DNA of 64,000 nucleotides from Eukaryota sp. GEM-RC1 (taxonomy: Eukaryota), in contig JAUFOQ010000001.1 in the NCBI GenBank assembly GCA_040285855.1, forward strand, positions 62,001-126,000. The letters run 5' to 3'. The translations under genes and the position numbers were made by a program. The notes beneath the pieces were generated by a model, which did no database searches, was not told where the DNA came from, and was given only the letters and a program-made list of their open reading frames with translations. Every line of letters begins with the position of its first letter. Positions within the stretch are counted from its first letter, which is position 1. Below, in pieces: positions 14,969-57,616 of this stretch.

Positions 14969-15275
14969 AGTCTCCTATCAAAACATATGTGAATATATAA
15001 TTGGATTTCTCGTTCTTCATTTGAGAACATGTACGATGCAGTCATAAGTCATCATATATAGTTGTTCAGTACACAAACTGGAATTCCACTGAAAGAGCAA
15101 CACTACCTCCAAAAAGACATCACCATTGGAATGAACGAAATGTGTTGGTGATGTATTCAACAGTCGAGTGAAGGTCTGATGAAAGGAAAGCGAATGACAC
15201 GTATCTGACCAACAATGAAGAGTCATTGAGAGTCTTTAACCACTCATGAACTTCATTTTCCCCATTCCTTTCGAT

Positions 15276-18105: not shown

Positions 18106-18900
18106 ATGCTTGCTAAATTCGTCTGTTTGATACTCTTCTTGAACTTGGTCTTCGGTGATCCTATCGTAGAACACAGTCTTGACACTACTAGAAAGCATGA
18201 AATCGCATTCTGCTTCGGTGAGTGCTCAACTGAAGAGATACGAGATCATCTCACTGGACGTAAGAATCATGCGGGAAGATGTGGTCTTTCTACTTACAAA
18301 CAAGTCTCAAAGCGCCAATGGGGAATTTCCTATCACGAACGAACCTACAGGTACAGAGGTCAGCAGGAATGGACATATTCATTGGCCAAAACACCGACCG
18401 AAATGCTTCAGTTAGTTGGTCATGTTAGTTCACGTCGAGCAGAATTCGGAGTCCGTGTCGCCAAATGTGAAGATTTCTTTGATCGACTTGAAACAGCTGC
18501 ATATGCTGTAGCAGTTGCTCTTGGAATCAGTGCTATCGTGGTGTCCAAAGGTGCTCTAACTCCTGTGGTTAAAGGACTTTTCTGGAAAATGCCAGCTTTT
18601 GCTGATTTCGAAACTGATCTCTCTACACCCTCAAATTCTCGTTGTTACTGGTGGAATTCTAAGTTGCCTGTTGGTATGGAGTTAGTATTAGGGTACACAT
18701 CTGATACGTACAACGACAGAAACGCGTGGTATGTAAGATTTTCCATGCCTGATTCAATGGGAGCAAATACTGGAAGATCGTTTCAACTGATTTTCAGAGA
18801 GATCAGACATGTAGGAATTAAAAGAGGCGAGGTTACGTGTGTACAGTACACTTCTCACCATGAACCTCAGTGTTTTGAATCTAGACCAGCAGTCTGTTAA
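18106..18900 (+). CDS. Secreted Cys-containing protein, paralog A2 (unknown family)
   Basis: ATG 18106, signal peptide MLAKFVCLILFLNLVFG; eight Cys positions shared with A1; central hydrophobic segment AAYAVAVALGISAIVVSKGAL. Confidence 0.85.
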   Translation: MLAKFVCLILFLNLVFGDPIVEHSLDTTRKHEIAFCFGECSTEEIRDHLTGRKNHAGRCGLSTYKQVSKRQWGISYHERTYRYRGQQEWTYSLAKTPTEMLQLVGHVSSRRAEFGVRVAKCEDFFDRLETAAYAVAVALGISAIVVSKGALTPVVKGLFWKMPAFADFETDLSTPSNSRCYWWNSKLPVGMELVLGYTSDTYNDRNAWYVRFSMPDSMGANTGRSFQLIFREIRHVGIKRGEVTCVQYTSHHEPQCFESRPAVC

Positions 18901-22087: not shown

Positions 22088-23990
22088 CTACTCGTTGTTG
22101 TTGGGTCTTTTGGAGAGTGGTATAAGCCTCTCAACTCCAGAAGTATCCTCTTCCAGTCTTCGTGTCTGACTCGAGCTTAATCTAGACGACAATACAATAA
22201 TGTCTTCTTCATCTTCTTCATCTTCGAGATTGACCTCTACTACTTCATTTCTATAGATACTCTGGAGATCCTCTTGGTCAAATGTTGCTTCAATTCCAAT
22301 CCTACTATCAGCCCATCTGTCTGTCTCTAAAAAAACTTGCGACATTGATGCTTCCAATATAGAGTTAAGGTCCTTCATTGATGTAAGTGATGGCTCTCTT
22401 GAAAGTAAAGTGGTGTTGAAATACACGTTCATTATCAATTCTAGATTTGATTCAGTTAAACTCATTCTTCGATCAGTCAACTGAAAATCAAGAGCTGACC
22501 AGTACTGCTCAGTTATGGACGCACTTGAGGAAGCTTGGGTTACACGGCGAGCCACCAATGACAAAGTAGGATACTCGTCGACTCCGTTCGAATACCACCA
22601 CTGGTGAGGTGGTTTTACAAATGACTCCTCTTCAAAAACGTCTTCAATGGAAAATAGATCAAATTCATCACTCAATGTTTTTGAGAATGTACCAAACTTC
22701 TTAAAGAATTCTTTCAATGGTCTCATCAATTCTGGGTCATTGACAAAATTGGAATTATACTTTCTTAAAGCGGGATTAAGCAATCTCGCGATTAAAAGTG
22801 AATCGTTAAAGACGTAATCCAGTCTCTTTAAATATAATGTATCCATTACTTCAATCCTAGCATCTAATTCTTCAACTGAAATTTGTTGATTTACTGAACG
22901 GTGAATGCGTTTAATCAATCCTCGAACAACACCCATTCCAAAATGAATGAATGAAACAAAACCTGAAGAACACTTATCAGCCATTCTTATCAGAGCAAGA
23001 ATAGGACTGCAAATGGCAACAAATACTTCACAATTGTGCCAAAACAATTCGTTGTCCATCACAAGTGATTTGGATTCCAAGAACTGGGATCGCTTAGGAA
23101 GATTTCTTGTATTTCGTATCTTGTTCTCAAACAATTGTAGTTGTACCACCTGAATCATGTACTTTCTGTTTTCAAGAATTCTTTTTAAGGTGATTAAAAA
23201 GTAAGCAATGCGTGTAACGGGATATGATTTCAGCTTGTAACCACCCAAGTCTTTAAGCCCCTGTGAAATTTGACTATTATTCTTAAATGTTCTGAGCAAC
23301 AGTTTTGTTGGAGCAATCAGTTCTTCAACCCAATCGACTTTTAAGAAGTCCTTAAGTAGCAAATTTAATGAGTGCAGAGAACATTTTGAACTGAGTGTAA
23401 TACAGTCCAAATCTGTCACAATTTTTTTTACTGCTGCATGATTGACATAAGCGCCATCAAGGGTAATCCAAGTAATTTTGAAGCACAATTCATTAAGATC
23501 AGCTAAAGTCTTTTCTGACGGTTTGCTAGTGAAATCTTCTACAATTTGGTGCTTTGTCTCCATTGAAGCAACTTTGTGGATCGCACTCTTCATTATGGAT
23601 CCCATGTGATTAGCATCGGCTGATTCTCCAGCGGTGGGAACAGATGCCAGAGCAAAAGCTATTCCATTAGACATAACAATGACATTATGTCTTGGGTCAC
23701 CCTTAGTTGAGTAACCATCAATACTCAACTCAAAAGAGTATCTTGCCAAATTGGGCAACACTTTTTTCGAAACCATTTCATCCATCTGTGTTTGTAAATG
23801 TGGTAGACACGTCTCAGTTGCTGTGTGCCGAGAAGGGCCAGTGTACTCTGGAGACAGTTTTTGGCGTGAACTAGTTGCGCAAAACGCGAGAGACAGTTCT
23901 TCCAAAGGGGTTGGTCGAATATCTGCAATGGGAGACCTAGACAAACAATTGCATGAGTAAAGGTATTGTTCATTTCTTGTTCTAGAAGAT
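22088..23990 (-). mobile_element. hAT-family transposase (DUF659-like core plus hAT dimerization domain), 5' part frameshifted or missing
   Basis: LSIDGYS (first catalytic D), ITLDGA, CSLHSLNL (CxxH), VTR, QWWYSNG..YPTLSLVARRV...SSSASITEQYWSAL; the preceding frame supplies AIVCLGLPLQIFDQPLW; GTCATGAC repeats at ~21920-21970 may be subterminal. Confidence 0.85.
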
Positions 23991-25388
23991 CTGTGGAAAT
24001 GGTTTATATATATAATATCAATTTCATATTCTCATGTTTGCTTCTTTACTTTTCTCGAAATTGTCACATCACATATCTAATATCAAAGAAATAATCAAAT
24101 TAATTCGATATGAACAGTATTAATTGGATACGATTTATTTTGAACTTGACTTACTAGTAAATGCTGCTTTGGTTCAATGGTATTGATTCCTAGATTTAAA
24201 CTATTGTTTTTATTTGAAATACTAACTGTGGAACTCACTTTACTCATTTCAGCTACCACAGTTCCTTACCCAGAATATTAGCTCTACATGATGAACCAAT
24301 CTCAACAAACAAAGAATAAATCTGTGACAAATTCAGCACTTTGTGTCTCCATAAGCAGTTGCTTAGAGTAGAATGTACTCAACTTTAACGTGGCACATGC
24401 TGACAAACAGCTGGGTGACGGCAGTAATGATTGAACATTTTCTAACATCTTTGTGATACCGTTTGGCTACAAAGGGTAGGGAAAAGATGTTTATAAATTA
24501 AATAATGTGATCTTGTAACACTTCACTAACACCTGTGGCTAACATTTGAAATCTTTGAACTGCTGTTGTTCCTGATTACATCACACAAGACAGCGAGCGC
24601 GTCGTCGGTCAAAGCATGTTATGAGAGTAAGCTCTTTGAACTCGCGGTGTCGTCAGCTTAAAGCTCAGGAATTAAACTCTTACTGTAAGTGTGTTACGCC
24701 ATGACCAAGAATAAATTTGTCATACGCGTATGGGCGTATGGACGTATGGGGGTCTATTCGTGTATGGCAAACAATGGCGCAACACTACTCTTACATAGAT
24801 TTACCCTACCAAACACAAATCTACGTAACTCTTTGCCAGATTCGTATATTTTTTGTTATTGATCGGTCAAACAGGTTACTTTCAAGTCATCATAACTAAA
24901 AGGAAACTTCAGCACTACCTGACAACATTAGAAATCAGTAGCGTCCAGAGCTTTTCATAAAGAAGTATGTTTAGAGAAACACAATCATCATCACCTCATA
25001 TTTTAGCACTCTAAATCTGGTAAGCCATCGACTAAAAAGGACAAATCAACACAACTTTGGCACTTGAAATGTCCCAATTTGTTTACGTTATTGTTCAAAA
25101 TACTCTTCAGAATTCCACGAGTTTCTGAAGACTTGCGTTGACCAGGAATTGAAATCCATAGACCAAAAATTTGATCACAATCCCACAAATCCACTATGGA
25201 TCCAACTTCTGAACTTCCCTCTGAAGCTGCCTTTACTGATAAAATCGTCCACTGTGTATGTCGAAAATGATCATCTTAAACCACAGGAATCTCTCCCTTT
25301 GCCTTCCTCATCCCACTGCCCTTCAGACCACCCACGATTTCAGCAGTCGTTGCTGGCCCTAGTCCATCTTCATCTGTTGAGAAGTCTT

Positions 25389-28300
25389 ATGAAGTCATCT
25401 GTGTCTACTGAACCTAATCGAGACTTACTCAGTTTGCAGCAGCAACTACCTACATTCTTTCAGAAAGTTGGCTGTGTCAGCAATCGCTTTTTCGAATCTT
25501 CTCTATTAGCAGTCAAAATGTTTGTTGAATCAAATACTTTTCAAGTGGTTCCTGAAGATCTGTCTGAAATATGCTCATTTGCTTCTTTCTTTGGAGCAGA
25601 GGATAAACCTGTTTTCTTGCACGTCGACGGGATTTTCTATGAAGAAGAATTTCTCAAATATTCTCACATAATAACAGGATTAGAGTTGACATTACGACAC
25701 CGCAACTATTTCGAGTTCCTCCACAAGTATACATTGTTGTATCCACTTCTTAAGCAACTTCATGTGTATGTTAAGTCCTCTATTTCTCCGATCATGTTCG
25801 AACCACTCAAATTCAACACTGTATTGACAAGTATCATTCTGGATAGACGCCGTATAAGAGAGAAAGGTGCTAAAGCCTTAGCGGAAGTGTTAAAAGTGAA
25901 CACTGTGTTGACAAATATTGGTTTGGCAACCAACCATATAGATGATGAAGGTGCTCATGCTTTGGCAGTTGCATTGAAGGTCAATACCACATTGAGAAGC
26001 CTCAATCTGGCAAATATCTATATTGGAAATGATGGTGCTAAAGCTTTGGCAGATGCATTAAGATTTAATACTACATTGGCAAGCATTAATCTTTGGGGAA
26101 ATTTTATTTCTGATGAAAGCATTAAAGCTTTGGCAGAGGCGTTAAAAGTTAATACTTCAGTGACAAATTTTAATCTTCGCCATAACAGTTTTTCAGATGA
26201 AGGATTTATAGCTTTGGCAGAGGCGTTAAAAATCAATACTTCAGTGACAAGTATTGATCTGGGTCAAAACCCTGTTGGAATTGTAGGCGCTCAAGCTTTG
26301 GCAGATGCGTTGAAAGTTAATACCACATTGAGAAGCCTTGCTCTTTCCAACCACAAATATTCCAACGACTACTTATTTCCAAGTGTCAGTGTTTTGGCAA
26401 ATGCATTGAAAATCAACACTACTTTGACAAACATTGATCTAAGTCATATCGGTTTGCACGATTCAGATGTAAGATATTTGGCAGAGGCGTTAAAAGTAAA
26501 TACCTCTTTGAGAAGAATTGATCTGGAATGGAACCGTATTGGAGAGAAACGTGCTGAAGAATTAGCGGAGGCTTTGTTAGTTAACACTACAGTTAGGAGT
26601 ATTATTCTGTTGGACAATTCTTTTCAGGGTTTGGGTACAAAAATACCCCTATGACATCAACTTAGTACATTTCTACCCCTCTTCTAAATTTGGGGTTTTT
26701 TCCTACCCCTGTTCGTTTTTCACGTCTTTTCCTTTCGATACTCTTTTATATTTCTATATAAATACAATACTAAGGGAACATTGCTACTTCAACATATACA
26801 CAATCACTTTCTCCAGATAACTCATCATCTTCTGTTGAGGTGTATTCACTGTCATTCCAGTCGTGGTCACCATCACTAGTATCAACACCGTCATAGAAGC
26901 ACACGTTTTGGAAGTCACCTGCTTTTAAAGCATTAGAAGTCAATCTAAGTGCGGGTTTGACCTGTTTCTTCCCTTGTTGTTCACCTGCTACAAACCTTTT
27001 GTTTTTTGGTCTTCCTCTTCCAACCACTACTTTTGGTGGTGTAATGTCAGATTCTTCCAACTCCATTGTTCCACACAGAAAGCATTCCTTCGTTGTACGT
27101 TCTTTTGTAGTTCTCTACTAGGTAGTAACTATCTACTGATGACACGATGTTTTGACCTAAGGCAAACAAAGCAGCAAATCCATGGCTGCATGGATATCCA
27201 TTAGCTTGCCATAGATTACAATCACACGTTCTAGCACGATCGTTGACAATAAATGCCTTACAACCAGCAAGAACTTGCACCAGTACATCTTTTCCCTTTT
27301 GACAACAACAGTAGTCAGGCTTTTAGCCTGGTATAATTCTGGCTTAATTCGATTCCACACATTGTCACAGATGATGTTATTCATATCATTTGCTTCAATC
27401 AATCGTTTCTCATACCACACAGACAATTTGTCAACAATAGCATTAATCATACGCACTACAGGTAACCCTCTGATACCGAGGAACCATGCATTCAAACTTT
27501 CAATCGCATTCGATGTTAAATGTCCGTATCTTAATCCAGGAAAGTGTACCGTGGTCCAATGTTCTAGCCCAGCCAATACAAGTTTATCATATGTTTTTGT
27601 TGAATTCTTACGAATTTCAGCAAGTGCTGCATTTAAATCTTCAACATTTTGAGCTCTAGCAGCTTTCCAAACAAGTGATGTAAAGCGAGCTCCCACGTTC
27701 TTAGTTAAATGTCGAAGACAGTAAGAATGATTTGATTCAGGATACACCTGACGCACAGCCTCCAATAACCCCTTTTCTCTGTCACTAATGAAAGTTGACA
27801 CATTATTTCCAAAAGAATCTTTAAATTGCTGTAAAAACCAGCGCCAATTATCCAAGTTTTCACCAGAAACAACAGCAAATCCCAAAGGGAACAGTTGACC
27901 TTGAGCATCAACCGTGGTAGAAGTCAACATCACTTGCCTGTATTTGTTGTGCAAATGAGTACCATCGATTTGCACCAGAGGTCTGCAATATTCAAAGCCT
28001 CTGATACAACTGTGTAAAGCGACAAACAGTCGATGAAATTGCCCATCATTTAGCTCCAATTTTACATTAGTTCCAGGATTAAGGTCCAAAAGTTTGTTTA
28101 AGTAAGCAGGAAGTTTGCGGAAGTTGTCTTCATGAGTGCCGAATAGTTCGTCTTTGCAGAGTTGCCGTACTCTTTTTACAGTATGACTAGGGAGGTTGGT
28201 GTTGCACACCTGCTTTAAGTCAATCGTTAAAGAACTAGCACTGATGTTCGGGTTGTGAAGTATTTTTGTACGTATCAATGTTAAGGAAGCAAGATATTCT

Positions 28301-40043: not shown

Positions 40044-43000
40044 CTACTGTTTACAACTATCAATTTTGTCATCCCAAAAATGTTCAAATTCTTCAAAACT
40101 CATTCGCTGCCAATCCTTAAAGAAATAACAAGAACTTGGATCATTCATCATTCCACATAACATAACAGTATTTCCATTGTCCAAACAAACGTATTTCCCT
40201 TTGCTATCATGGAAGAAAACACAAGTCCCGTCATCGTAGGTCCGTGTGCTAAGTCTAATATCATTGTGGACATCTACTATGAGGTCTTGTAAATCAAACT
40301 CAGTAGAATGCGGTTGTGAATCCTTCCAGCTGCAATCAGCGAAATCATACCAACGATCTTCATCATTTTGACTTTCATATAGCCAAGTATTTGAACTGTT
40401 CCAATACAATCTATGATTCAAAAGATCAGCAACTATGGTAACAGAGTTGGAGTTCTGATTAGAGTCAAAAGACATTGATACAAACCGAAGTTGAGGATGG
40501 ACTTCTACAGAAGTCTTACAAGACCCAGGAAGATGGAAGTAATGAGTTGATGAAGAATGGGACTGGAATCCTTGCAGAATAAGTTCTCGAAATCCTTGAA
40601 TCTGACTACTATTAGTGATGCACCATTCAAGTTCAGATTCAAAAAGGTACCTCTTACAAAGAGAATCGTCCTTGACTCTCGTTATCATTGTTTTGTTGAA
40701 GTTCCACTGTGAGAGTTGGTTTTCTTGAGAGGTCCATTCTGTCCACCATTGACATGGAGATCCAAACGAATCGTGAGAATCTAGACCAAAACAAACAAGT
40801 TGAGTGCATTTGTTATCGTTTTCGTGAAAAACGTATGTGTTGTTTCCTTTGATATAGACCTGGTTCTGTGAATCATAGCTCCCACTTAACATTTGTTCTT
40901 CTAGATTGAAATACAAATGACTCAAATCGGGCCAATCTATGGAGAAATGATTCGGAATTGTCCAATCAGCAATGACACAAAGGGAAGGAACATCAAACAG
41001 AGAAGTTCCTGAGATACGACGAGGTGAATCGTAGTCTGTACATACAAATTCATCATCAGTGGTAAAACAATGACGATGTATAAAACCTTCACCATAGTAG
41101 ACTTCATGAACAGTAATGTTAGTTTCTACCGTGAACTTTTTACAGTGGTAATCGTTTATCACCACAATTTTATCTTCATCAACATGATCAACACCAATCT
41201 TATGAGCGTACAGAAATTCAGAGAAAACATATCGATCGTCCGATGCAAAAGTGCATTCATCGCCATCATAATAGTACAGGTTGTTAGAAGTTAACAAGAT
41301 TTGGAAATCATCGTCCTCAATTGAAACTGTACCATTTTTTAAATTGAATGTAATAATTTGTGACAGGCTTGAAACATCTACTCTGAAGACGTCCTCTTGA
41401 AATTCACTGCAGAAATAGTCATAATGCCACATTTCAGATTGAGAATCTAATTCAATATGGTCAATAAAATGAAGACAAGTTTCAGGATTCTGTTCATCAC
41501 TACATACCATTACCGTAAAACCATCATCTAAACAAACGAAAGTTCCCTCGTTATTTTGAAACACCTGGCATGTTTTCCCTTCGTCATAAAACTTTTCACC
41601 AAAATAAAGATCGGTAAAAACTGAAGTCGTTAGTTGTTGAGTAGTAATAGAAAGAGAGGAAACACGGTCAATCATCTCACGTTGACAAATAGGACTAATT
41701 GAAAAGAGTTGGTCATTGTTTAAGAAATATCCTTTGGCACGAGGTAAATCTCCAATGGAAAAAATCGAAGAATCAGCACTTTCAGTAATAGTAATGTCAC
41801 TGTTCAAGTTCATTGAAATACGATACTCATGTTCTGATGTCCTCAAATTCATCGAAAAGAACGGTTTCTGTGGGTATATGGTTGGAGCACTTTGGCAAAC
41901 ATCTGGAAGGTTTAGTTGAGGATGAAAATCATTGTATACTTGGTAATTCTGAATAGCATCACCCTCAACACGTCTACGAACACCGTCATCATCAATACAC
42001 CAATCTATCCAGCCATCGCCTCTTTTGCCCATGGTGTAGGTGGTGCAATGGTGTTCAAACTCTGTGTTGATTCGGCGCTCCACATAACTAACCCACTTCT
42101 CATCCAGCTCCCAGTAAGGGAAACCTAAACCCTCAATTACCGTTTTCAACTCACACGGTGTTCCATCCTTTTCATCCCGAGGTAGAGAATCGCAAAACAA
42201 AAGAGCACATTGATTGTTGATTTCATCATATGAATAGGTGGAACTGTTTTGGTAGAATACTTGGTGATGCGAGTCATAGATATGACTGAACAGATTACTA
42301 GTGAGATTAAAGTAGGCATGACCAAAATCAAGAAAGTCTAACGAAAATGAGTTGAATTCCGGTAAATCAGGAATTTTGCAAAGCTTTGGAACATTGAAAA
42401 CAGCTGAATTTGATGGAATTTCTCCAAAACCAGAAAATTTCGTACAATCTCGGGAGCTACCATCAATGACACACATTCTTCGAACAAATCCTTCTCCGTA
42501 GTATAATTCAAATTGCATATCAAGTTGCTTGTAGAATTCTTTGAGGTCATAAGTGTACAATGTAGTCTTTACTCCATCTACATCATACTTGATTCCTTCA
42601 GTGACATGATCAGATCCTATACGGAATATGGGCAGAAACAGGTTCAACGTGGACTCATGACCAATGCTACAGGACGCTGATCCTTCCATTACGAGGTACT
42701 CAATTCCAGATGTGAACAGAGCAACAGATTTCTCCTCAAAGCCGTCTTCATCTTCCCAAGATTGTGATGACCATATCTTTCCCAAGCCAAGGTCAAGTGC
42801 CGTGGATTCATTTTCATCAAATTCCATATGAAAAACACGAACTTGGATTTCAGGACATTGGTGGTCAACAGAAAAAACCTCTGTTTCTTGGATGTCTTCA
42901 TTATGATCACTGAATATCAGACAACTATCAAGATTTTCTTCTTCCTCACACATCAAAACTGTAAGACCTGCATCCAAGCAAACAAACATTCCCATTTGAT

Positions 43001-43526
43001 TTTCATACATTGAGCAGGTGCTTTGTTTTCCGTAAATACGTCTTCCTACAAGACGATCCTTTTCAACTGCTACTTTGAGTTTCAGTGCAGTAACAGGAAG
43101 TAAACCAACTTTAGCAGAATCTTCACGGTGGCAAACAGAACCCAGACTAAGAAGCTGGTCATTTTGAAGTAAATAACCTTGAGCAGGCAGCAATTTATCA
43201 GAGAAGAGCAATGGAGATTCAGTGGTTTGTATAAGAGTGCTGTCAGTGGCAGTATCGACAAATATGGTGTATCGAATATCATCATCTTTTAAGCTGACTG
43301 AGAAGAGACTTATCTGTGAAGGATGTTTGGGATCGGGTTGGGGACTGACATCATCAGGATAGATCAGGAATAGACCAATAATGCCCGCAATCACCAACAA
43401 CAATAGCAACAGTCCAACAATTGTTCTTCGCAATATTGGGTTCTTTTGACAAGTGTACTGTTGTTCATCAACCATAACAACAAGTTCTTCTTTTAAGTCG
43501 CGCATGTTACTCATGGGAAAAGTCAT
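40044..43526 (-). CDS. Type II membrane protein with seven tandem Cys-rich modules, ependymin/EPDR (LolA-fold)-like
   Basis: TM IVGLLLLLLVIAGIIGLFLIY; ~160-aa modules each ending in an F-x-x-P-x-x-C-like motif; clear internal duplication (LPAQGYLLQNDQLLSLGSVCHRE versus LPRAKGYFLNNDQLFSISPICQRE). Confidence 0.75.
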   Translation of the reverse strand: MTFPMSNMRDLKEELVVMVDEQQYTCQKNPILRRTIVGLLLLLLVIAGIIGLFLIYPDDVSPQPDPKHPSQISLFSVSLKDDDIRYTIFVDTATDSTLIQTTESPLLFSDKLLPAQGYLLQNDQLLSLGSVCHREDSAKVGLLPVTALKLKVAVEKDRLVGRRIYGKQSTCSMYENQMGMFVCLDAGLTVLMCEEEENLDSCLIFSDHNEDIQETEVFSVDHQCPEIQVRVFHMEFDENESTALDLGLGKIWSSQSWEDEDGFEEKSVALFTSGIEYLVMEGSASCSIGHESTLNLFLPIFRIGSDHVTEGIKYDVDGVKTTLYTYDLKEFYKQLDMQFELYYGEGFVRRMCVIDGSSRDCTKFSGFGEIPSNSAVFNVPKLCKIPDLPEFNSFSLDFLDFGHAYFNLTSNLFSHIYDSHHQVFYQNSSTYSYDEINNQCALLFCDSLPRDEKDGTPCELKTVIEGLGFPYWELDEKWVSYVERRINTEFEHHCTTYTMGKRGDGWIDWCIDDDGVRRRVEGDAIQNYQVYNDFHPQLNLPDVCQSAPTIYPQKPFFSMNLRTSEHEYRISMNLNSDITITESADSSIFSIGDLPRAKGYFLNNDQLFSISPICQREMIDRVSSLSITTQQLTTSVFTDLYFGEKFYDEGKTCQVFQNNEGTFVCLDDGFTVMVCSDEQNPETCLHFIDHIELDSQSEMWHYDYFCSEFQEDVFRVDVSSLSQIITFNLKNGTVSIEDDDFQILLTSNNLYYYDGDECTFASDDRYVFSEFLYAHKIGVDHVDEDKIVVINDYHCKKFTVETNITVHEVYYGEGFIHRHCFTTDDEFVCTDYDSPRRISGTSLFDVPSLCVIADWTIPNHFSIDWPDLSHLYFNLEEQMLSGSYDSQNQVYIKGNNTYVFHENDNKCTQLVCFGLDSHDSFGSPCQWWTEWTSQENQLSQWNFNKTMITRVKDDSLCKRYLFESELEWCITNSSQIQGFRELILQGFQSHSSSTHYFHLPGSCKTSVEVHPQLRFVSMSFDSNQNSNSVTIVADLLNHRLYWNSSNTWLYESQNDEDRWYDFADCSWKDSQPHSTEFDLQDLIVDVHNDIRLSTRTYDDGTCVFFHDSKGKYVCLDNGNTVMLCGMMNDPSSCYFFKDWQRMSFEEFEHFWDDKIDSCKQ

Positions 43527-44175
43527 CGTCAATGAAATTAATTTGAACCCCAATATGAACTGAATTCACAAATTGCGTTCCACTCGATTCCGTTTTCGAG
43601 TTGAGTCAAATAGCCTAAAGATACAATAAGTCGAGTTGCTACGACTCAAGTCAAAACCAACTCATAGAGTTGTCAGATCAGAATATTGATTCAACCAAAC
43701 ATCAATTCAGTGACTTCCAAAACCTTTATTAGACATGAACTATGTGTAGGGTTGGTGGATTTGATCAATATGTAAACTGATTATTTATCTCCTGAAATGA
43801 ATCCTTCATTACTTGTCTCCACTCCTACGGTCTTTTAACAGTGAAGCTAGGGTATCCGACGGTGAGAATAGTAGTGAAGAATGATGACTCAATTTATGAT
43901 GAAAGAGAAATTCTGGAGCTGCTGATGATGATTGGGAGATCCACTCTATGTTGTTCTCAATTTACTTCAGAACAGAATTGATAAGTCCGTTTTATTATTT
44001 CCATCAGTTAATATAGGAATGCACACATATCATTCACACCGAATTCAAACAAGGGAGAAGCAAACACGATAGTTGCTTGTGTGTCGTCTTCACATCGAGA
44101 AGTGTTAACTTGAATGTATATACGCTATTTTTTGACAATCCGACACTTTTTCGATTACGGTAAACACACATAGCT

Positions 44176-44948
44176 TTTAAACATCGTTATCAAAGAGGCA
44201 CTGTTTATCCGTATTCTGATGTCCAAAAATCCACAGAAATTGAGGATGTTGCAAGAGGAACGATAGCTTTGATTTGGACACTTGAAGATCACAGTAATAT
44301 GGTAAAGCAGTAAGAAACGCAGCATTAAAATGTAACATCAGAACCAATACAATTCGGAAAGAGTGTTTAAGAAAGAAAACGAACATGATGGATAAAGATA
44401 GATAGAGCTTGGACTTCTGATGTCCTAAAGTGTACCTACTGAGCAGACTAAGAATTCGAAGCAATGCTTGGAAGACATTGCTATCAAAGAAGAAATCCAT
44501 ACTAGAGGATTAAGAGGTTGAAAGAGGATATGTAATAGCGTTGGAGGAGCTACCGCCACCAACTTCAGCGTTGGAGGCTTGTCTTCACAGAAGAGCCACT
44601 AGCAGCATATACCTTGGAAACACCTTCAGGGTTGAACTCAGAGTTTTGTAAGGATTGGTTCTTCAAATCAGTTGACTTACCTGTGCTTTTTCCTCCACTT
44701 TGTCTCGTAATGATGATCTAAATCACCATATGATTCCGACTTGTCGATCCTTATACTTTCTACATCAATTTCTATTCAAATCTGGCTTAACCGCCTCTTA
44801 ACTATTGCTCTCTGTTGTGCAATTCTACATCGCTGCTAAGTGCTCTCAAGCCTCTCACCGATGCTATTTGTGGTTCCATCTTTGGCGTAAGAACATTGTT
44901 GATTTCTTTTCTTGAATGTGGGTCGTTTTGTTCTTCTCTAAGAATTAC
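44176..44948. repeat. ~770-bp direct repeat, copy 1
   Basis: Near-identical to 48393-49161; shadow ORFs MDFFFD... occur in both copies. Confidence 0.9.
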
Positions 44949-46326
44949 GATGCTGTTTAGCTTGATGTCCAAACAATGCTAGGGTTGGTATACCATAATG
45001 GGATCTGGAGGACATTTTGACTTCTCTCTGGAAGTAACTACGTACAAGGTGGTGTATCACTTGTTGGATCAATCAATGTAGCAGTCTAGTATTTGTGAGA
45101 TATCAAAATTGGAGAACCTGACAAATTCAGTGAAGTTGTATTAGAATCGATTCTGTGTAACACAAACTGGTAATTAATGTTTTTGAAAGAACGCCATAGT
45201 TGTGAGTTCGCTTCTCTCCCTTTTCAGCCTAATTCCAGTTATCCTAAAACTCAATGTCTTCAACTCACCTTATCCCTGTTTTGGCATATTTTAATGTTGC
45301 TCCTGAACGCAGCATCTCTGGAACGATCTATCTTGTCTTCAACATAAGTGTACACACATTCGAAACCCCCGCAATCAAAACAAATATGATGGATAGTGAT
45401 GATGATCACAATCTTGGTACTGTACAAGTTTATTTCAGACTTTGAAAATCCATCAGATTGATCTACAGTCAACACTGTCTATAACGTCACCATATGTCCT
45501 TACGCTATATCGAATAAACATACTGTGCATTTCTACTGATTGAGTTGAGTCTTGATATACAAAACAAGCAAAGAGAGCTGTGCCATACGTTCATCACCAA
45601 AGTAGACACAAGAGCCATGTCCATGACAGATCAGCAGTCAAGACTAAAATGTGGTGGTGACAAAAAAACAAAGAGTACATCCACGTGTTGTAGCTCCACA
45701 CAAACCATATTTGTGAGGAAAATTGAATAACGACGTCTTTCCGTCATGATCTAAGAACGACCCGTTCTGTCTCTACCATCTTCTTTTGTTAGCAAGTGGG
45801 ATACCTAAGTCACATAGTACGCATTTTTTGTTGTATTTGTTTTTACAATATGATACACATTTCGTCTTTGTATCTTAAGGATATAGTATTGGTTTAGCAT
45901 GAAGATACAAGGGAAGAAATGTTTCAAGTTCGAGATCTGACAAAACATCGTCGATATTGAGGATTACCCCTGTCGTTTTAACTTTCCCTTCTTGATTCTA
46001 TTCACAAGAGATGTCTTTATTTAGGCCAGTGTAGGGTTTGAAGAAAGTATTCTACGTGTATGAACTTAGGTTGTTTTGCGGGGCGATGTATACCTTCAAG
46101 ATAGATGAGAAACTGCAACAGAATACTGATGGGAGAGAAAGGCCATCAAAGCAGTATCAAGTGGTTGGAGTATGTACTGTACTAATTAGGGCTGCCAATG
46201 GGAGAGAGATAAGTACTGTACCATGATTAAGAGTAACTGGACCTGATAGAGACTTGCAAGACATTCCGCATCATTGATCAATGACCTGGATTAACGCGTC
46301 ACAGAATTTGCGTTTTTTCAAGTGAA

Positions 46327-47681: not shown

Positions 47682-48392
47682 CAATAAATGTGCACTATTC
47701 TGAGTGGAACAAAAACTGGAAAGAAGAAATGATGTCCTATTATATGTTGCAAATCCTTCGATTTAAGAGTCAATGGCTTTTAAAACTCTTAGTCAAACTT
47801 GAAGTTTCTAACACGAATAGACGATTAATAACAGGGTTCGAAAACACACACGTGATTCAAAAAATTCGTGTTTGGTCACTGCTAGTGGTCTTTTCAAGAT
47901 TTCCAATTCTCCCCTCTTTTCAAACTGACTATAGTCTCTACATCCAAATAGAGAGATATGATTTTGAATAGAACTGCTGTTTTCTGCATGAGAGTACATT
48001 CATGTATTCTATTCAATGGAAATCCACAATGGAGTGCAGAAGATGAAGAAGAAAATGGAAATAAGTGAGTTTGTCTTTGGACAATAAAATTACGTGTTTT
48101 GCTTAAAAGTGGTACATGCACATAGCATACAGTATAACCCTGTCCAATATTACCAATAGTATTGTATTGATGTGCCAAAACACCATCCAATTTTTCATAT
48201 TGTACCCCTGTCCAAAAACACCTATTTATTGTCCACAATTAGAATTCTGTATTGTTTCAGATCTCATATTGTCAATATATATTGTGGTTGGACAGTCAAT
48301 GTAATTATTTCTTTACAAACCATGCACAATATGTATTGTAACATAAATTGCAATATATTGAAATACTATATATTTTTCAGCATCCATATTCT

Positions 48393-49161
48393 AAACATCT
48401 TGCTCCAAGAGCCGCTGTTTATCCATAGTTCAATGTCCAAAAACCACAGAAATTGAGGATGTTGCAAGAGGAACGATAGCTTTGATTTGGACACTTGAAG
48501 ATCACAGTAATATGGTAAAGCAGTAAGAAACGCAGCATTAAGATGTAACATCAGAACCAATACAATTCGGAAAGAGTGCTTAAGAAAGAAAACGAACATG
48601 ATGGATAAAGATCGGTAGAGCCTGGACTTCTGATGTCCTAAAGTGTACCTACTGAGCAGACTAAGAACTCGAAGCAATCCTTGGAAGACATTTCTATCAA
48701 AGAAGAAATCCATACTAGAGGATTAAGAGGTTGAAAGAGGATATGTAATAGCGTTGGAGGAGCTACCGCCACCAACTTCAGCGTTGGAGGCTTGTCTTCA
48801 CAGAAGAGCCACTAGCAGCATATTCCTTGGAAACACCTTCAGGGTTGAACTCAGAGTTTTGTAAGGATTGGTTCTTCAAATCAGTTGACTTACCTGTGCT
48901 TTTTCCTCCACTTTGTCTCGTAATGATGATCTAAATCACCATATGATTCCGACTTGTCGATCCTTATACTTTCTACATCAATTTCTATTCAAATCTGGCT
49001 TAACCGCCTCTTAACTATTGCTCTCTGTTGTGCAATTCTACATCGCTGCTAAGTGCTCTCAAGCCTCTCACCGATGCTATTTGTGGTTCCATCTTTGGCG
49101 TAAGAACATTGTTGATTTCTTTTCTTGAATGTGGGTCGTTTTGTTCCTCTCTAAGAATTAC
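48393..49161. repeat. ~770-bp direct repeat, copy 2
   Basis: Near-identical to 44176-44948. Confidence 0.9.
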
Positions 49162-49666
49162 CTTGGAAATCACTTTAGGGTTGTAGACCAGGCATGTCAA
49201 TTGATAAAAAGCGTTTTAAACGTTGTTCTGGATAACGCACAATGTTCTACTCCACTTTTGTCGTAATTTGACAGTTTTTATCTCATATATACATCGTCAA
49301 ACAAGCTGAAACAAGGCGAAAGCAATTGTTGGTGACAATGTTGTATACTGGTTGGTTCTGTATCTGAGCGAATGACCTTCACGTACATCCGAACATTGGT
49401 CTTATTGCACAGACCATGTTATCTTCACACATTGTTTACCTGATCACAATTAGATGAACAGTGTATCTCATTTACATTGTGTTCTCCTTAGAATCTCAAA
49501 AGAACATAGCTGCAATGATCGAACTCTGAAAGACCTGGTTGATGAAAATGAAGTGAGAAAAAAGTGAAAAGTTGAAGTGCTCCCTTTAATCGTTTGTTAT
49601 TAAAATCAAAAACAACTATAAATCGAAAATTAAAACCGTTATTATTTTATTTTTGCACTCCGTATC

Positions 49667-52600
49667 TTACAAATCAGCAGATGTAGTCAGATGTCCGTCT
49701 TTTCAATGTTCAACTATCTTCGATATCCGTTCCAATTAGATATCCTAAGAGATTCTAATTCTTTAAAGGAGAATTGTGCAGTATCTCTTCACCAAGTTTT
49801 TGGCTTTACTATAAATGGTACCTATTGTGTACCATATTAGCGAACCATTTCTTCTACTACTGAAGTAGTGTTTCCAATATAATTTTAGCTGCTAACTGTT
49901 AGAGAATTTCCGAATCAAAATAATAACAAAGATACAAATTTATACTTGAAAACGAGAGAACGACTTACTTGCACATTCTCCACACTTTCTGCCATTGTTC
50001 TGGATACTGAAGTTTGGAGAGGAAATCGTGGAGATAAGGGACCTTAAGGTTAGGGTCTTCTGATGTGGGCATCCTTTTCTTTGGAACGTATTCAAACAAA
50101 TTGTGAAATAATGCGAATATTCTGAAAAATGATAGAAGAAGTCGATAAAATGGAAATAGAAAAACAACTATAAGTGGTACTTGTAAATCCTTTCTTCTTC
50201 TTAATTTGACATAATTAAAGATGAAAAGATGATATACTGGATCAATAAAACACGAATATAGATCAATCCAAGTAGATATCCATCTTTCATAATGATGAAA
50301 TAGGAAATAATCAACAAGTGAAAATAGTCTCTTATGATAGTCACAAGTTCATACATGTAAAATGGTTTAAGAATCAACGCGTTAATACTCCAGAATCGAA
50401 GCAAATGTTCCAAATATTTAAAAAAGAACCGATGAGCACACGCATCCCATGACTTAACACGTTGATTAAACAACGACTTATCACCTAAGGATTCATCCCC
50501 AAATAGGTCCTGCGAAACATGAATCAGATCAGCAGGGACTTGTGTGAGAGCAGGAGTAGCAGCAAACGTAATCAGCTTCATCTCAGGCATGAGTTCTCTC
50601 GTGAGAAAGCCCATGAGAGCATCTTCTCCATGAAAAGCGGTACTATGATGAGAAATCAAGCAAAACAAACTTGTGATGATCGAGAATTTCAATTAAAACG
50701 TTCTTTTCCAAATACTAATGGCACCATGTGGATAAGAAGCAGTACCGAGGTTACTTTGACATTGTTTCATCATTCCGGAAAGCATATACTCCTGGAGTTA
50801 TCTTGAAAAAAAGTTAATTACATACCATATCTTGAAACCAAACAAGTAAACTGCGGCGTCTAAAGCTAGAGATTTTCGGACGGTTTATATCAGCTCTAAT
50901 AGTAATAACAGCTCCAGCAACATTGTCTTTCTTCAACTTGTCAGTTTGCCAGCTCATATCACGGGGAATGACCACGTCATCATCCATAATCACAACATAC
51001 TCTATTTCTGATCGTCGATTAAGAATATTTTTAGCAACCTATTGTAAGAAGAAGTAAAGAAACATACATAGTACAGACAAAATGTTTTGTTACCAGCCGG
51101 AACATAAACCTACAGTAAGTTAGAACAACAACCATACATAATTAACATTCCGACCCCACAGTTTGGTTTTTATAAATGATATCAACGGTTGTATCCGTGT
51201 TATGTGGTGCTTCCTCAGCAGTGTTATGACACACATACACATTACCATTAGCTATTGTGAGCAACATATTGTAGTACATACCTACTGAATCCGAAGCTAA
51301 TCGCAAAGTGCGGATGAATTGGGTTTGAACATCTTTTGAAGATCCTCGATTTGTTTATCACTTTTCTTGAAGAAATTGGACTTAATCTTATCTCTGGCCA
51401 GTTCAGGACTAAAACCTCCTGACATGTGACAAGCAATTAGAATGGCGACATTGGGAGCTTTAATATTGTAGTCCTTAACATTCCGGTGGACAGGCCATGA
51501 GACAGTAAAGAAAGCAAGAACAATAAGAAAATGCTCAAGCCCTAAGATGAACAAAGTGATATAAACTGATGAAACTTGGTGGAAGAACTTGGTAGCAAGA
51601 ATATAGTCTCTGTAAAATACGAGAAGCAAAATCAACAAGACAATGGACAAAAACATCCAGAAACATACACCCATGGAATCACGTTTCACGGAACCAAAAC
51701 CACGAATATTTCGAAATTCTTGAAGAAGCTCAAGCCATTTATCATCAACAGGAACATCAGTGTTTTCAGGTCTTTCAGGATCATCTGGAACATAATCAGG
51801 ACGGACATGGGTGTCTTCCAGAACATGAAACATCTCCTCGTCGGCATTGACAGAAACTTGCAAATTAGATTTGTACATTTCAGAGAGAACAGCAGTAATA
51901 ACAAGACAAAGAAAACCAGAAACAAGAGCAACATCAATCAGATCTAGTGCTTCAGAGTGTTCGTCCAAAGCAAAGTATCTGAAGGAAAGATTCACCATGG
52001 AGCTCTTTTGGAAGGAAATACCGACAGAAAATCCAGTAAATGAAACATTTGAAATATCACATATGTAGGAAATGGAAGAATTTGTAGCATCAAATCCATC
52101 AAGATATACATAAACAGTAGGAAATCGAATAAATTCGTCAGTGAAAAGAATGTTTTTGATCACGTAATCAGTTGGTGAGTCATCATTAAGTTCAGAGCCA
52201 TTAACAAAGAAGGTACCAACATCAATAGTATTATAAAAGACATTAGTTACATTTAAAACCAATGAATTATGTCGGAACTCGGAAGCACGGCCTGAAGTTT
52301 CAACTGAAGAAAAGATGTGTAAAAAGTCAGTACCATCATCCAAAACCACTTCTTGATGATATGAAAGCGTATCCAATTCATCAAAGAAAAACCCTTGTGG
52401 AGCAGAGAGTAGAAGCAAAGAGCCATCAGCAGGATAAGGAAAAGGAGTTTGGCTGAGCCATTGAAGTTCGTGTTCAACAAAAGAGTATTGAGAACTTAGA
52501 TAGGCCTTGGAGTCGTCAGAACAAGAAGCTCCGACTGCTATCCAAGTGATTGACAGTCGATTTAAAAAGGATTCTCGTGGATAAGCACCAGGAATCCTTG

Positions 52601-54696
52601 TTCTAATAGTCAACAGAAAAGAATGTGAAGTAATTCTGGAGGCAAAAACATCAACTGTCAGAATCTGTGATGAATCAATATCATGTAAAGCAACAAAGAC
52701 GGCGGGAGGAAATGGAAACTCAAAATTAAACCATACTTGCAATTCCATGTGAAATCCGAGGGCTCCTTGGTGAAGGTTGAACTGTGGAATGGATGGACCG
52801 ATTGACAGGAAATCTGTATCCAAGATAGTAGTTGGTGGACAAAGTAAAGCGTGTTCGAAGACGATTGATGATGTGTAAGGAAGGAAAAAGAAAACAAGTA
52901 CAAGCAAAGCAATGAGAAAAACATAAAAACAACATCCTTTGCATTTGGGGAGATATTTAGGATTTTTTGTAACTACAGCTGGTGATTTGCTAGAATCTTG
53001 CCACTTTGAATCTGAAACATGAACATTCTCCTTCTTCGGTTGAGAACTAGGAGTGCCACGGGGCATTGTTCGATACTCAAGTGGAAAATTCGGCAGGACA
53101 CCTCTTGGAGTAATGGATTGCGGAAATGCCTGATTTTCAACAACCTGGTTTGGCGTGGTTGGAATGACTGAGCGGTCCAGAAGTGGTTGAGATAGATCTT
53201 GTGATGAAGTAACTGATTCCATAGGGGTAGGAGATGGATTTCGATCAGAAACAGTCGAAACCTGGTGAATCACACATTGTCTTTGCATTTCTGTAGCATC
53301 ATTGAAAACGTTTCGTAAGCTATTAACAGAGGGTCTTAAACCCAACTCTTGGTTAATCATGAGTACAATTTTCTCATATGTGGACCGTTGGTTCTTAGTG
53401 AGCTTAAAATGACTGCTGGACAGTCTGTTCTTTAAGTTATCCCGAAGTTGTAGCAAATTATTGATAAGTGTTCTAATTTGACGGCTCTCAATTTCATTCG
53501 AGGTCACAGTTTCAGTTGCAAGAAAGCTGTTCTGGGCGTGAGCAAACGTAGCAAATGATGCTGCTCCTTTAGCAGTAAAGTATTCTAAGGATACATTACT
53601 AACATGACTCACAGATCCTGTGCAAGCCCTTTGAACAAGTTGGTTGACGTTTGGGATATTTGACCCGAGACCAACCATGAGCAAGACTTTGTATGATGAT
53701 TTGTACTTTCTTAATGCAGTTTGAAGGAACTCTTGACATTTGTCATACACACTTTGCACAACATGTTGAAATTGACTGTGTGAAAGTTCTTGCTTAAATT
53801 CATAGTTATGGTTCGAAATCCTGCCTGTGAACGATACGGTCACAGATGATTCTGGAAGAGACAGAGATTCTTTAATTGATTTGGTCCGTGTGAGAAGTTT
53901 GTTTTTGAATTGAACATGTTCAACTATACGAGAGGGAATTCCTTGAGATTTTGCTCGTTCACTGAACCAATTGTGAATCGCTTTGTCAAACACTTCTCCT
54001 GACACTTCATTAGTTTCTTCTGATTCAACGGCATACCTATCTTGCAGAAAAGATACAGCTGAAAGCTCTAATTTGGTTGCCCCTAGGTCGAGTATCAGAA
54101 CCTTATTTGGGTTAGTGTTGTGGGTATTCTGGAATCCATAAGTACTGTATGCAAACGCAGCAGCAACACAATCGTAGATCACCCCCAAAACTTCCAACCC
54201 AGCTAATTCAGCTGCCTGTTTCATACAACCGCGTTGTGTTTCCGTAAAGGAAGTGGGCACTGTGAGAACACATTTGCTCGGTTTTTTAGTAAGAGAGAAT
54301 CTTCTCACATGTCGATCAATCAGTTTGTTCAAGAGGTTAGCGAAGAGTTGTTGAGGTTTGTATTGGGTGTTTAAAAGTTCAACGACACAGTCACCGTCTG
54401 AGGAAGATTTGATGGAAAAGGGCCAACGATCATAATACTGAGGAGAAGACGCATCGTATTGTTTTCCAGTCAAGCTTTTGAATCCATAAACGCAAGATCT
54501 AGGCGATATCTCAAATGCTTGCAGGGCTTGTTCTCCATACACAATGTCATTTCCGCATACAGCAAGCGCTGTTGGGATGTTGCTTATCTGTCTAAAATGA
54601 GATCTTTGGGTGCACAAACTGTTCTCGATTGCTAAGAGAAACAACACGGCATTGATATCCTCCAAAATCTATTCCAAGAGTGATGTCGCTTGCCAT
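49667..54696 (-). CDS. Fusion protein: degenerate Hsp70 NBD - TM - tandem H-type lectin domains - TMs - processive GT2 glycosyltransferase
   Basis: ATG 54696 (MASDITLGIDFGG), intron 54592-54619, then one open exon through NBD, TM, lectins and VAILIACH; GT2 motifs GNKT, IMDDDV, QDMEY, PHGAISIWK, HGED, QRVKSWD assembled using introns 51252-51281, 51110-51137, 51039-51067, 50792-50825 and 50643-50670 plus about three 1-nt slips; 3' end approximate. Confidence 0.8.
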
Positions 54697-55869: not shown

Positions 55870-57039
55870 CTAACGGAGTTCAATGAGGGAAGCTCCTTGG
55901 GCAACAATTTCGTCCACTTCTAAACTTCCTTTAACCTTCTGACGACCAAACATTTGATGCAACATGTGGCAGATCTTGGGGATTCTTGTAGAACCACCAA
56001 TGAGTAGAACCTGTTCGATATCCGATTCAGAGAAATTGTTTCTAGAGAGCAACTGTTGAACTTGCGTAATGCATTGGTCAAACTTTTCAGCACACATTTC
56101 TTCGAAATCTGCACGACGAACAACTTGAACAAAATGATGTTGATCCACTTTCAAGTCAATAGCAACACTCTCCTGGAAAGACAAATGTTCCTTTCCTAAG
56201 ACACATTGCTTTCTGAGTCCAGTAGTAAAATAAATATTGTTACGAATATTAGGACCAAATTGATCTATAGCCGTCATAAGACAATCTTGATACAGAAGAT
56301 CATCAAAGTTTGAACCACCAAGATTAGAATCGCCATCGGTGTCAATTACAACATGGGACTGTTGCTCACCAGCTTTGATAATCGTAATGTCAAAAGTACC
56401 TCCACCAAGATCAAAAACAAGAAAGAGTTTGCCAACAATATCCAAGTCTGGATTAGCGTGAAAATAGGCCAACGTAACAGCCATTGGTTCTTCTAAAACT
56501 CTGATAACATTGAGCCCAGCAAGATCGCCAGCCTGACGTGTAGCGAGTTTTTGACTTTCATTGAAGTAAGCTGGTACAGTTATAACAGTATCAATTTGTT
56601 CGTTATCGAGATCGAACTGGTTCTGGGCATAAGTTTTGATTTCTTTTAAAACCTCAGCACTCAGAATTTGAGGAGTAAACAGTTGACCATTGAGATTAAC
56701 AGCAGCTACATCACTATAAGGGTCTGGCTCAATCTTGAAAGGAAAGCTCCTGAACTGTGTGAAGTCTATCTCGGAGAAGGGACGTCCCATTAAACGTTTG
56801 AAGTCTCGTGCTACAGCAGGTGCGTATTCGGGAAAATGGTCGATGATAGTTAAAGCTGGAGAACCGCAGGAAATACCATTTACGGTATAAGCCACAACCG
56901 ACGGCATTGTACGGTTATTCTGAAAATATACAGGAAAAGGACTTCAATTAGGTGAAAATGATATCGACTACCTTTGATTACGTTGATATACAAACCCACA
57001 ACTGTTTGTAGTCCCTAAATCTATAGCAAGAGTGGGCAT
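55870..57039 (-). CDS. Hsp70-family NBD-only paralog (inverted partial duplicate of the gene at 36217)
   Basis: [14 protein letters not shown], 30-nt intron 56942-56971, intact frame with [14 protein letters not shown] and IGGSTRIP, ending at QGASLIELR*; upstream ~400 bp also resembles 35830-36217. Confidence 0.8.
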
Positions 57040-57616
57040 TGTCGTTGAAAAATAGAACTCTTAATTCTTACAATCACTCTCATTGGTTTGAACTTGAATA
57101 CTAGAGTCTTGCCCGTCCACTGTCTAGTCTTGTCAAATTCCGCTCCATATATGTGATATTGGGCGTTAAATCGATCTGAATTCAACCGTCTCTGCCATGG
57201 ATCACATGAAACATATCTCAGATCTATTACTTTCCTCGTAAGTACAGCTAATTTCTTTTCTTCCTTTAGACTGAGTACGATGCTGGAAGGCGAAGATCTT
57301 GAACAAGCTTCCATTCCTCTCCGAAGACACCTGTCCGTATATCTCTATTCATCACCATGGGATAACATATGATTTAAAGCTGTTTCATCTCCTTTCCGTG
57401 TTCTTCCACTTTTGTCATTACCAAACAGGGAAAGTGTCTTTAGAAAATCAGACTCGCACTACATCTCTTGTAGATTACTCTCGGATGAAATCCACATAGA
57501 TTTACTCTTTATCATCACGCTCTAAATACTGTACCATAGCAAATGATCCCACTTCCCCGTTCTCATTGATCAATTGTATTGTATATCGCTGGTTGACGTT
57601 GACATATATCTGCTAA

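Follow-up and report, generated by a model that had tools for sequence, protein, structure and literature searches.

Of the motor-fused polysaccharide synthases, the literature that we found describes the myosin-chitin synthases, namely fungal class V/VII enzymes such as Mcs1 of Ustilago, and animal fusions. Such fusions are reported to have arisen independently more than once (PMC3942024), and the myosin-17 of Mcs1 is described as tethering, and not moving, vesicles (PMC3252574). In the window (the whole 64,000-nucleotide stretch analyzed, positions 62,001 to 126,000 of contig JAUFOQ010000001.1 of the salt-lake protist Eukaryota sp. GEM-RC1; coordinates below count from its first letter), we found a gene (49965..54696, minus strand) of similar design, in which an N-terminal ATPase-fold module, predicted to be cytosolic, is joined to a membrane glycosyltransferase of family 2 (GT2). 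It differs from the myosin-chitin synthases in that the module is an Hsp70 nucleotide-binding domain (NBD) or, in paralogues, a kinesin head, with no myosin match in Pfam scans of the fused proteins. Also, a three-repeat lectin-fold ectodomain precedes the GT2 domain, and EDRxL and QRRRW motifs are absent, as are cytochrome-b5-like and DEK-C matches. In its proposed working the gene product resembles a motor-fused chitin synthase, yet it falls outside the family of those enzymes. We lean, modestly, toward reading it as a processive synthase with a tethering or regulatory head.

No description of an Hsp70-, kinesin- or H-lectin-fused GT2 synthase was found in a literature search that did not cover subscription journals, in agreement with the first-pass annotation of this DNA, which knew of no described protein with this architecture. 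The architecture is likewise not described in the text of the genome paper or in five of its six supplements, and in the accessible parts of two chitin-synthase surveys kinesin is named only in the title of a reference.

The gene model was built by three-frame reading with a script, one-base slips being written as X. Read in this way, the gene encodes 1518 residues in seven exons separated by six GT-AG introns of 28–34 nt, from the start ATG at 54696 to the stop codon at 49965-49967, and once four one-base slips are bridged the 1518 codons hold no in-frame stop. Intron 1 (28 nt, 54592..54619) directly precedes the long exon that had been proposed to begin at 54591 and uses the same junction as the database protein P0008. 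The open-frame listing and translation give a stop-free frame of 1123 codons (51297-54668, minus strand). The encoded order is Hsp70 NBD (residues 1-378; 53535..54696), a probable helical segment and low-complexity linker (residues 379-575; 52944..53534), a first transmembrane helix (TM1; 52881..52937, hydropathy 2.9), three H-type-lectin-fold repeats (residues 609-903; 51960..52844), TM2, a cytosolic loop, TM3 and TM4 (51495..51941), the GT2 catalytic domain (from residue 1074; 50447..51449), and C-terminal membrane helices with a tail (49965..50446). The hydropathy scan places four helices before the GT2 domain, at residues 578, 910, 1000, and 1035. Since four helices precede it, the GT2 domain is predicted to lie on the same membrane side as the NBD, with the repeats opposite, which supports, as a prediction, the topology proposed from helix parity (NBD and GT2 inside, lectins outside). 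An outside or lumenal position of the repeats fits the five N-glycosylation sequons and two conserved cysteines of that region.

Sequence searches with the HGED-QRVKSW exon (best 6 of 136 candidates) and with residues 570-1100 (best 6 of 7992) gave listed matches that are all NCBI entries from Eukaryota sp. GEM-RC1, TZLM1-RC or TZLM3-RCL, organisms reported to be skoliomonads (PMC11316075, PMC11603281). Two of them agree exactly with the window gene, P0008 with its N-terminal product and P0011 with what its GT2 exons encode. The orthologue P0003 of TZLM1-RC is an intact chain of 1532 residues that matches HSP70 and H_lectin and, weakly, GT2. It aligns colinearly with the window protein over all four slips, and the identity is 34.5% for the NBD, 39% for the repeats and 79.5% for the GT2 domain. 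An intact protein of the same order in a second species shows that the fusion did not arise as an error of this contig. The earlier claim of a single fusion protein is supported. GEM-RC1 also encodes P0009, a further copy of the NBD-lectin-TM part, so that two isolates retain the fusion and at least two copies of it exist. Misassembly within the long exon was ruled out by the colinearity of both P0003 and P0009.

Within the GT2 domain (motifs ACH, CHN, GNKT, DDD, QDMEY, PHGA, HGED, and QRVKSW; broken by five introns of 28–34 nt and three of the slips), MDDDV starts at 50987, the intron-split QDMEY at 50834, HGED at 50632, and QRVKSW at 50464. The DDD, QxxEY, PHGA, and GED motifs are conserved, and QxxEY, ED, and QR..SW occur family-wide. 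The first-pass annotation had read a processive D/DxD/ED/QxxRW series here; DDD, QDMEY, HGED, and QRVKSW were recovered, while the first Asp proved to be His and the Trp of QxxRW to be shifted. Its expectation of profile matches was likewise borne out for HSP70 (E = 1.4e-41) and H_lectin (E = 1.7e-14) and failed for the window's own GT2 exons, which stay under the Pfam cut-off (PF00535, E = 0.1). For this reason, the GT2 assignment rests on relatives and on a paralogue model. A profile search of the GT2 sequence against the PDB gave no match at E <= 1. The model, made for the Barthelona paralogue P0029 on a 102-row alignment, has a predicted local distance difference test (pLDDT) score of 77, mostly above 90 in the GT2 domain. 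It comes nearest to hyaluronan synthase (Foldseek E 5e-13), with hyaluronan, cellulose, and chitin synthases filling ranks 1-27; compared with the Chlorella virus hyaluronan synthase it reaches Z 19.4 over 372 aligned residues (root-mean-square deviation, rmsd, 3.3). Both this model and the helix scan of P0003 show a GT-A domain flanked by membrane helices. By way of this paralogue, and with the DxD and ED motifs, we predict a membrane GT2 of the processive synthase type, as had been proposed at first sight, with a hyaluronan synthase-like fold.

The polymer is suggested by more distant relatives. The top NCBIfam match among 22 family members was PgaC/IcaA in 11 and NodC in 2, all far under the cut-offs (best scores 39 and 32 bits; cut-offs 422 and 550), which gives a hint of an N-acetylhexosamine (HexNAc) polymer. 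As the two lectin-clade proteins scanned match no GT2 model, this guess at the sugar rests on those relatives. The gene thus shares with hyaluronan, PgaC/IcaA, and NodC synthases the best structural match of its paralogue, DxD and ED motifs and weak profile matches in its lectin-less relatives, and differs from them by an identity of about 15%, QRVKSW, His for the first Asp, scores far under cut-off and the extra modules. As for chitin synthases, their signature is given as QXXEY, EDRXL, and QRRRW, and their QNFEY and VLPGA (PMC12653383) are the counterparts of QDMEY and PHGA; the window protein has QDMEY, with EDALM and QRVKSW at the other two positions.

The repeats (about 52832-52524, 52502-52251, and 52226-51963) match Pfam H_lectin in two stretches, with 54 bits over a cut-off of 24. 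An AlphaFold2 model of the region (pLDDT 80, predicted template modelling score 0.77) contains three six-stranded beta units, so that the two clear and one probable H-type lectin repeats of the first reading are three in the model. One unit superposes on discoidin I with Z 9.6 (rmsd 2.5), on Helix pomatia agglutinin (HPA) with Z 8.7 and on SLL-2 with Z 8.4, and Foldseek likewise puts H-type lectins nearest; the whole model gives Z 8.8 with the PCSK9 C-terminal domain (207 aligned) and Z 8.2 with single-chain C1q. The three units are predicted to pack as a single-chain pseudo-trimer. Like HPA, the discoidin I/II C-domain and SLL-2, the region combines an above-threshold H_lectin match with the fold (Z 8.4–9.6) and, as modelled, three packed units; unlike them, it forms part of one membrane-anchored chain and not a homotrimer, and it has lost the Thr-Trp motif. 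This motif, aligned with HPA by way of P0063, is kept in only three unfused paralogues of 14 rows and is absent from those columns in the other 11, including the window protein and all fused forms; the upstream Arg of HPA type is also absent from the window protein. We take Thr-Trp and the upstream Arg to be the residues by which HPA binds N-acetylgalactosamine (GalNAc). Owing to the loss of Thr-Trp, canonical sugar binding by the window protein appears doubtful in spite of the H-lectin fold.

We found that the catalytic domain belongs to an uncharacterised eukaryotic GT2 family with GNKT/PHGA/GED/QRV[RK]SW motifs, which has named members in Barthelona, Telonema, and Chromosphaera. When 1.84 billion representatives were searched with a profile, 841 matched at E <= 1e-3, of which the best 150 were listed. 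Of 166 family proteins, 15 carry the repeats according to local profiles, 3 the NBD and 5 a kinesin domain. Of the 15 proteins with repeats, 14 are named, all from skoliomonads or Barthelona. Among these 166 proteins, lectin repeats are confined to skoliomonads and Barthelona, and Hsp70 or kinesin modules to skoliomonads, by which the window protein's group differs from the rest of the family. Members from Telonema, Chromosphaera, and eukaryotic metagenome contigs are lectin-less. No fornicate was seen among the named matches (20 names looked up from the best 150 of 841). In a FastTree phylogeny of 134 GT2 rows (a coverage and length filter dropped 30 of the 164 GT2-bearing records), the eight lectin-bearing domains of sufficient length form one clade with support 100. 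In a 15-row tree of the lectin-GT2 core the Hsp70 and kinesin forms make up one clade (100/99), within which the kinesin forms group together less firmly (70/92), so that the Hsp70 form may have arisen among them or beside them. Pattern scans confirmed none of 49 candidate stretches in viral contigs, none of 46 in prokaryote genomes and 9 of 92 in metagenomes; neither lectin nor motor was detected in the three metagenome matches scanned with Pfam.

Two further groups of family members were observed. A second, lectin-less clade of skoliomonads and Barthelona (P0014, P0022, P0024, P0025, P0026, and P0031) has N-terminal extensions of up to about 2100 residues, with no Pfam match in those scanned. 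A distant member (23–24% identity, QRVKSW) is encoded on AT-rich, gene-dense contigs (L007:5584-7143, L008:5608-7143, and L009:5584-7143) that give a giant-virus-like impression.

The HSP70 match covers residues 32-374 and ends at position 373 of the 599 of the model. No substrate-binding domain or lid was found after the NBD, and the 97 residues beyond the profile match have no Hsp70 match in the PDB, so that a lid remnant in the helical segment is not supported. Like Hsp70 chaperones and atypical Hsp70s, the window protein has a full-length NBD with the equivalents of D10, K71, and D199; it differs from them in lacking a substrate-binding domain, in its altered phosphate loops and in its fusion to a membrane enzyme. 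We take the roles of D10, K71, and D199, the GTT and GGGT loops, and a catalytic Glu to be canonical Hsp70 features. The motifs found are GIDFGGY, FKSLTG, YDCVAAA, DLGATK, and MVGLGS. The first phosphate loop reads GGY in the window and GAD in P0003, and the second GATK and GASK, with T13 and, in the phosphate-2 loop, GGT substituted; the catalytic Glu position is Asp in the window and Glu in P0003. Judging from the altered loops and the missing substrate-binding domain, the fused NBD cannot be an Hsp70 chaperone and is likely a non-catalytic head, and the domain is indeed degenerate, as had been noted from its motifs. Between it and TM1 the linker includes about 110 low-complexity residues and evolves fast, with 64% identity between two recent copies vs. 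92% for the NBD.

We found that in four paralogues from three Skoliomonas isolates (P0004, P0005, P0006, and P0010) a KIF9-like kinesin head replaces the NBD, followed by the same core of linker, TM1, repeats, TM2–4, and GT2. To our knowledge of the literature searched this is new, and it strengthens the parallel with myosin-bearing chitin synthases drawn in the first-pass annotation. The best solved-structure matches of the P0010 head are 7n61 and KIF9. In all four full kinesin heads switch II reads DLAA, with Gly replaced by Ala, while the P-loop and switch I are recognisable; we take the intact switch II to be DLAGSE. A fifth kinesin-bearing protein, P0040, is sister to P0006. By our own reading of the sequences, the Ala seems to match the position of KIF5B G234. 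The KIF5B G234A mutant is reported to lack hydrolysis and to remain microtubule-bound (PMC13016605). Two other paralogues begin with a signal peptide, an ectodomain and extra membrane helices, and Barthelona P0029 and two skoliomonad proteins begin directly at TM1, without any head. The N-terminal slot is thus swappable, holding nothing, an ectodomain with membrane helices, a kinesin head or an Hsp70 NBD, on an older lectin-GT2 core that is common to skoliomonads and Barthelona and that in both genera also exists in headless form.

In the reading that we favour, one membrane protein would polymerise sugar from cytosolic UDP-sugar by its GT2 domain and push the polymer across the membrane. The product would be a HexNAc-containing surface or cyst-wall glycan. 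The repeats may hold or organise the emerging polymer or form a structural cap, with the canonical galactose (Gal)/GalNAc site probably retained solely in the unfused paralogues. The degenerate Hsp70 domain, no chaperone here, would tether or regulate the enzyme from the cytosol without catalysis of its own. The head may position the enzyme or its vesicle, the kinesin forms gripping microtubules without walking and the Hsp70 form binding a partner, a role that would parallel the tethering of Mcs1 vesicles by myosin-17. Several observations weigh against this. The first catalytic Asp is His (CHN) in all 14 lectin-clade rows, and QxxRW reads QRVKSW in the window protein, with the Trp one place later, a shift seen in all 88 other family rows as well. 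The two lectin-clade proteins scanned with NCBIfam matched no GT2 model. The structural model was made from P0029, which is 32% identical overall to P0003, and not from the window protein, and with this model the non-processive PcManGT equals hyaluronan synthase at Z 19.4. The slips of the window copy cluster in the GT2 exons, where 4 of 21 runs are hit, compared with none of the 49 runs of the long exon (p = 0.007). Finally, cysts are reported only for TZLM3-RCL, from which no Hsp70-type form was found among the family proteins.

A more far-reaching version of this reading, which we consider rather unlikely, is that skoliomonads, independently of fungi and animals, evolved lectin-capped synthases with plug-in, dead-ATPase heads, building a GalNAc-type cyst wall or plug; a rigor-like kinesin-9 head would anchor the enzyme on microtubules and the Hsp70 NBD would have taken over its slot. 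The Skoliomonas isolate TZLM3-RCL is reported to make double-walled, plugged cysts (PMC11603281), on which the cyst link of the favoured reading draws as well. In Giardia the cyst-wall HexNAc synthase was reported in 2010 as not molecularly identified (PMC2924369), a report of 2026 failed to find a chitin synthase in Tritrichomonas (PMC13332039), and, as far as these sources go, the question of the cyst-wall synthase is open in both (PMC2924369, PMC13315228, PMC13332039). If true, the proposal would supply a first candidate, at the level of sequence, for the HexNAc cyst-wall synthase of a metamonad. Under the favoured reading too, the family would show the same design reached anew on another GT2 lineage, by way of a microtubule motor head in some forms and the ATPase domain of a chaperone in others, and would offer a natural test of whether such heads act as tethers. 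The intact P0003 and the short, unfused P0029 are expressible candidates for cyst or surface glycan synthesis in the sister group of Giardia's lineage.

An alternative that we regard as unlikely is a receptor-like synthase whose NBD, though not active as a chaperone, binds ATP or ADP and gates the GT2 domain, e.g., when the cell starves, whether or not the outside repeats take part. It agrees with the retention of the D10, K71, and D199 equivalents, with an altered loop, DLGA[TS]K, common to orthologues whose NBDs are only 34.5% identical, and with the predicted position of NBD and GT2 on the same membrane side. Gating is, however, hard to reconcile with a long, variable linker between the NBD and the membrane, with the substitution of T13 and of the phosphate-2 GGT, and with a slot that in paralogues holds a kinesin head or is empty, while a receptor-like function is opposed by the lack of the HPA-like Thr-Trp in the fused forms. 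Consequently, the first-pass proposal of lectin sensing outside combined with NBD gating fared poorly: Thr-Trp is lost, the linker is variable, and the NBD is interchangeable with a kinesin head.

As given, the assembly encodes a product of 1123 residues without the catalytic core, identical to P0008. The one-base slips mentioned in the first-pass annotation are present, four in number, all in the GT2 part and the C-terminal tail (near 51335, 51172, 50707, and 50224). Slip 1 (51334..51335) is one base short in an A run and ends the annotated product; P0009, the other copy, terminates in this shifted frame as well. Slip 2 (51171..51174) is one base extra at an A run, slip 3 (50706..50707) one base short in an A run, and slip 4 (50223..50224) one base short in a T run, where the fragment P0002 is in frame. 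All four lie in A/T runs of at least four bases, which make up 7% of the GT2 exons (chance 3e-5). The slip-3 site, a Trp-Lys-Lys run, is shifted also in fragments P0002 and P0016. The probable partner of P0016, P0012, is only 46% identical to the window protein over the lectin alignment, which makes the relationship too distant for an inherited lesion. Short introns as the cause were ruled out by the alignment with P0003, which is gap-free over all four slips. Between the two recent copies, 210 of 224 residues of the GT2 tail are identical, compared with 347 of 378 in the NBD (92%) and 118 of 184 in the linker (64%). GT2 identity being far above that of the linker (p = 3e-14; vs. the NBD, p = 0.43), the GT2 domain looks constrained.

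The slips are probably assembly errors. We see a rather slim chance that they are real and that the window copy is a pseudogene or an NBD-lectin-4TM protein of 1123 residues, the intact fusion existing only in relatives. Such a broken copy would explain the clustering of slips in the GT2 part (p = 0.007), which uneven polishing must otherwise account for and which decay of the GT2 domain would also give. It would also agree with the ending of P0009 in the same shifted frame and with the many GEM-RC1 family members that are fragments. The Illumina correction of the published assembly at 116x points the same way. In favour of assembly error, that assembly was built from MinION reads with Canu and Nanopolish, and its fragmented BUSCO predictions are the most numerous among the three skoliomonads (29 for GEM-RC1 vs. 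7 and 14; PMC11316075). Against a broken copy stand the absence of any stop, a GT2 domain as conserved as the NBD (p = 0.43) and far above the linker, the slip-3 run shifted also in a paralogue of about 46% identity (on the probable pairing of P0012 with P0016), and the slip of another window gene, of Hsp70-VWA type, at a T run.

It is improbable that the NBD is a mere passenger of domain shuffling in a repeat-rich genome, with an enzyme that works like the unfused lectin-GT2 proteins. Unfused paralogues do exist, and the window holds an Hsp70-VWA hybrid, an NBD-only copy, and hAT and MULE transposase frames; still, two isolates and at least two copies retain the fusion, and between copies the NBD is 92% identical vs. 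64% for the linker. A non-processive GT2 that transfers a lipid- or protein-linked sugar while the repeats hold the acceptor, to which the tie of PcManGT for the best Z of 19.4 and the variant motifs would lend themselves, is very improbable given that the first 27 Foldseek ranks all go to hyaluronan, cellulose, and chitin synthases, membrane helices lie on both flanks, QxxEY, ED, and QR..SW are family-wide, and the repeats are predicted on the side opposite the active site.

The Hsp70-VWA gene (36213-38411, plus strand) has a VWA domain between its NBD and a second, C-terminal HSP70 match, and its frame slips by one base within a T run near 36792. A copy of it at 55870-57050 (minus strand), with 84% DNA identity over the NBD and canonical motifs, breaks off where the NBD ends. 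This copy shares its strand with the fusion gene, from which it is 1.2 kb upstream, and has only about 24% identity with the fused NBD. At 24–31% identity, the neighbouring Hsp70 genes were rejected as the source of the fused domain. The transposase frames are of hAT type (22088-24031, minus strand) and MULE type (27157-28476, minus strand), and the stretches 44177-45000 and 48366-49215 are near-identical and non-coding-looking, with almost the same short frames, which suggests a dispersed repeat. Other genes of the window include a long carboxypeptidase-regulatory-like repeat gene (7756-12750, minus strand) in three frames with breaks near 8890 and 11300, and a frame of 1173 residues (40044-43565, minus strand) with one hydrophobic stretch near its N-terminus, internal repeats and no Pfam match. 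Two paralogous frames of about 300 residues (14172-15047 and 17974-18900, both plus strand), the first without a Pfam match, have signal-peptide-like starts.

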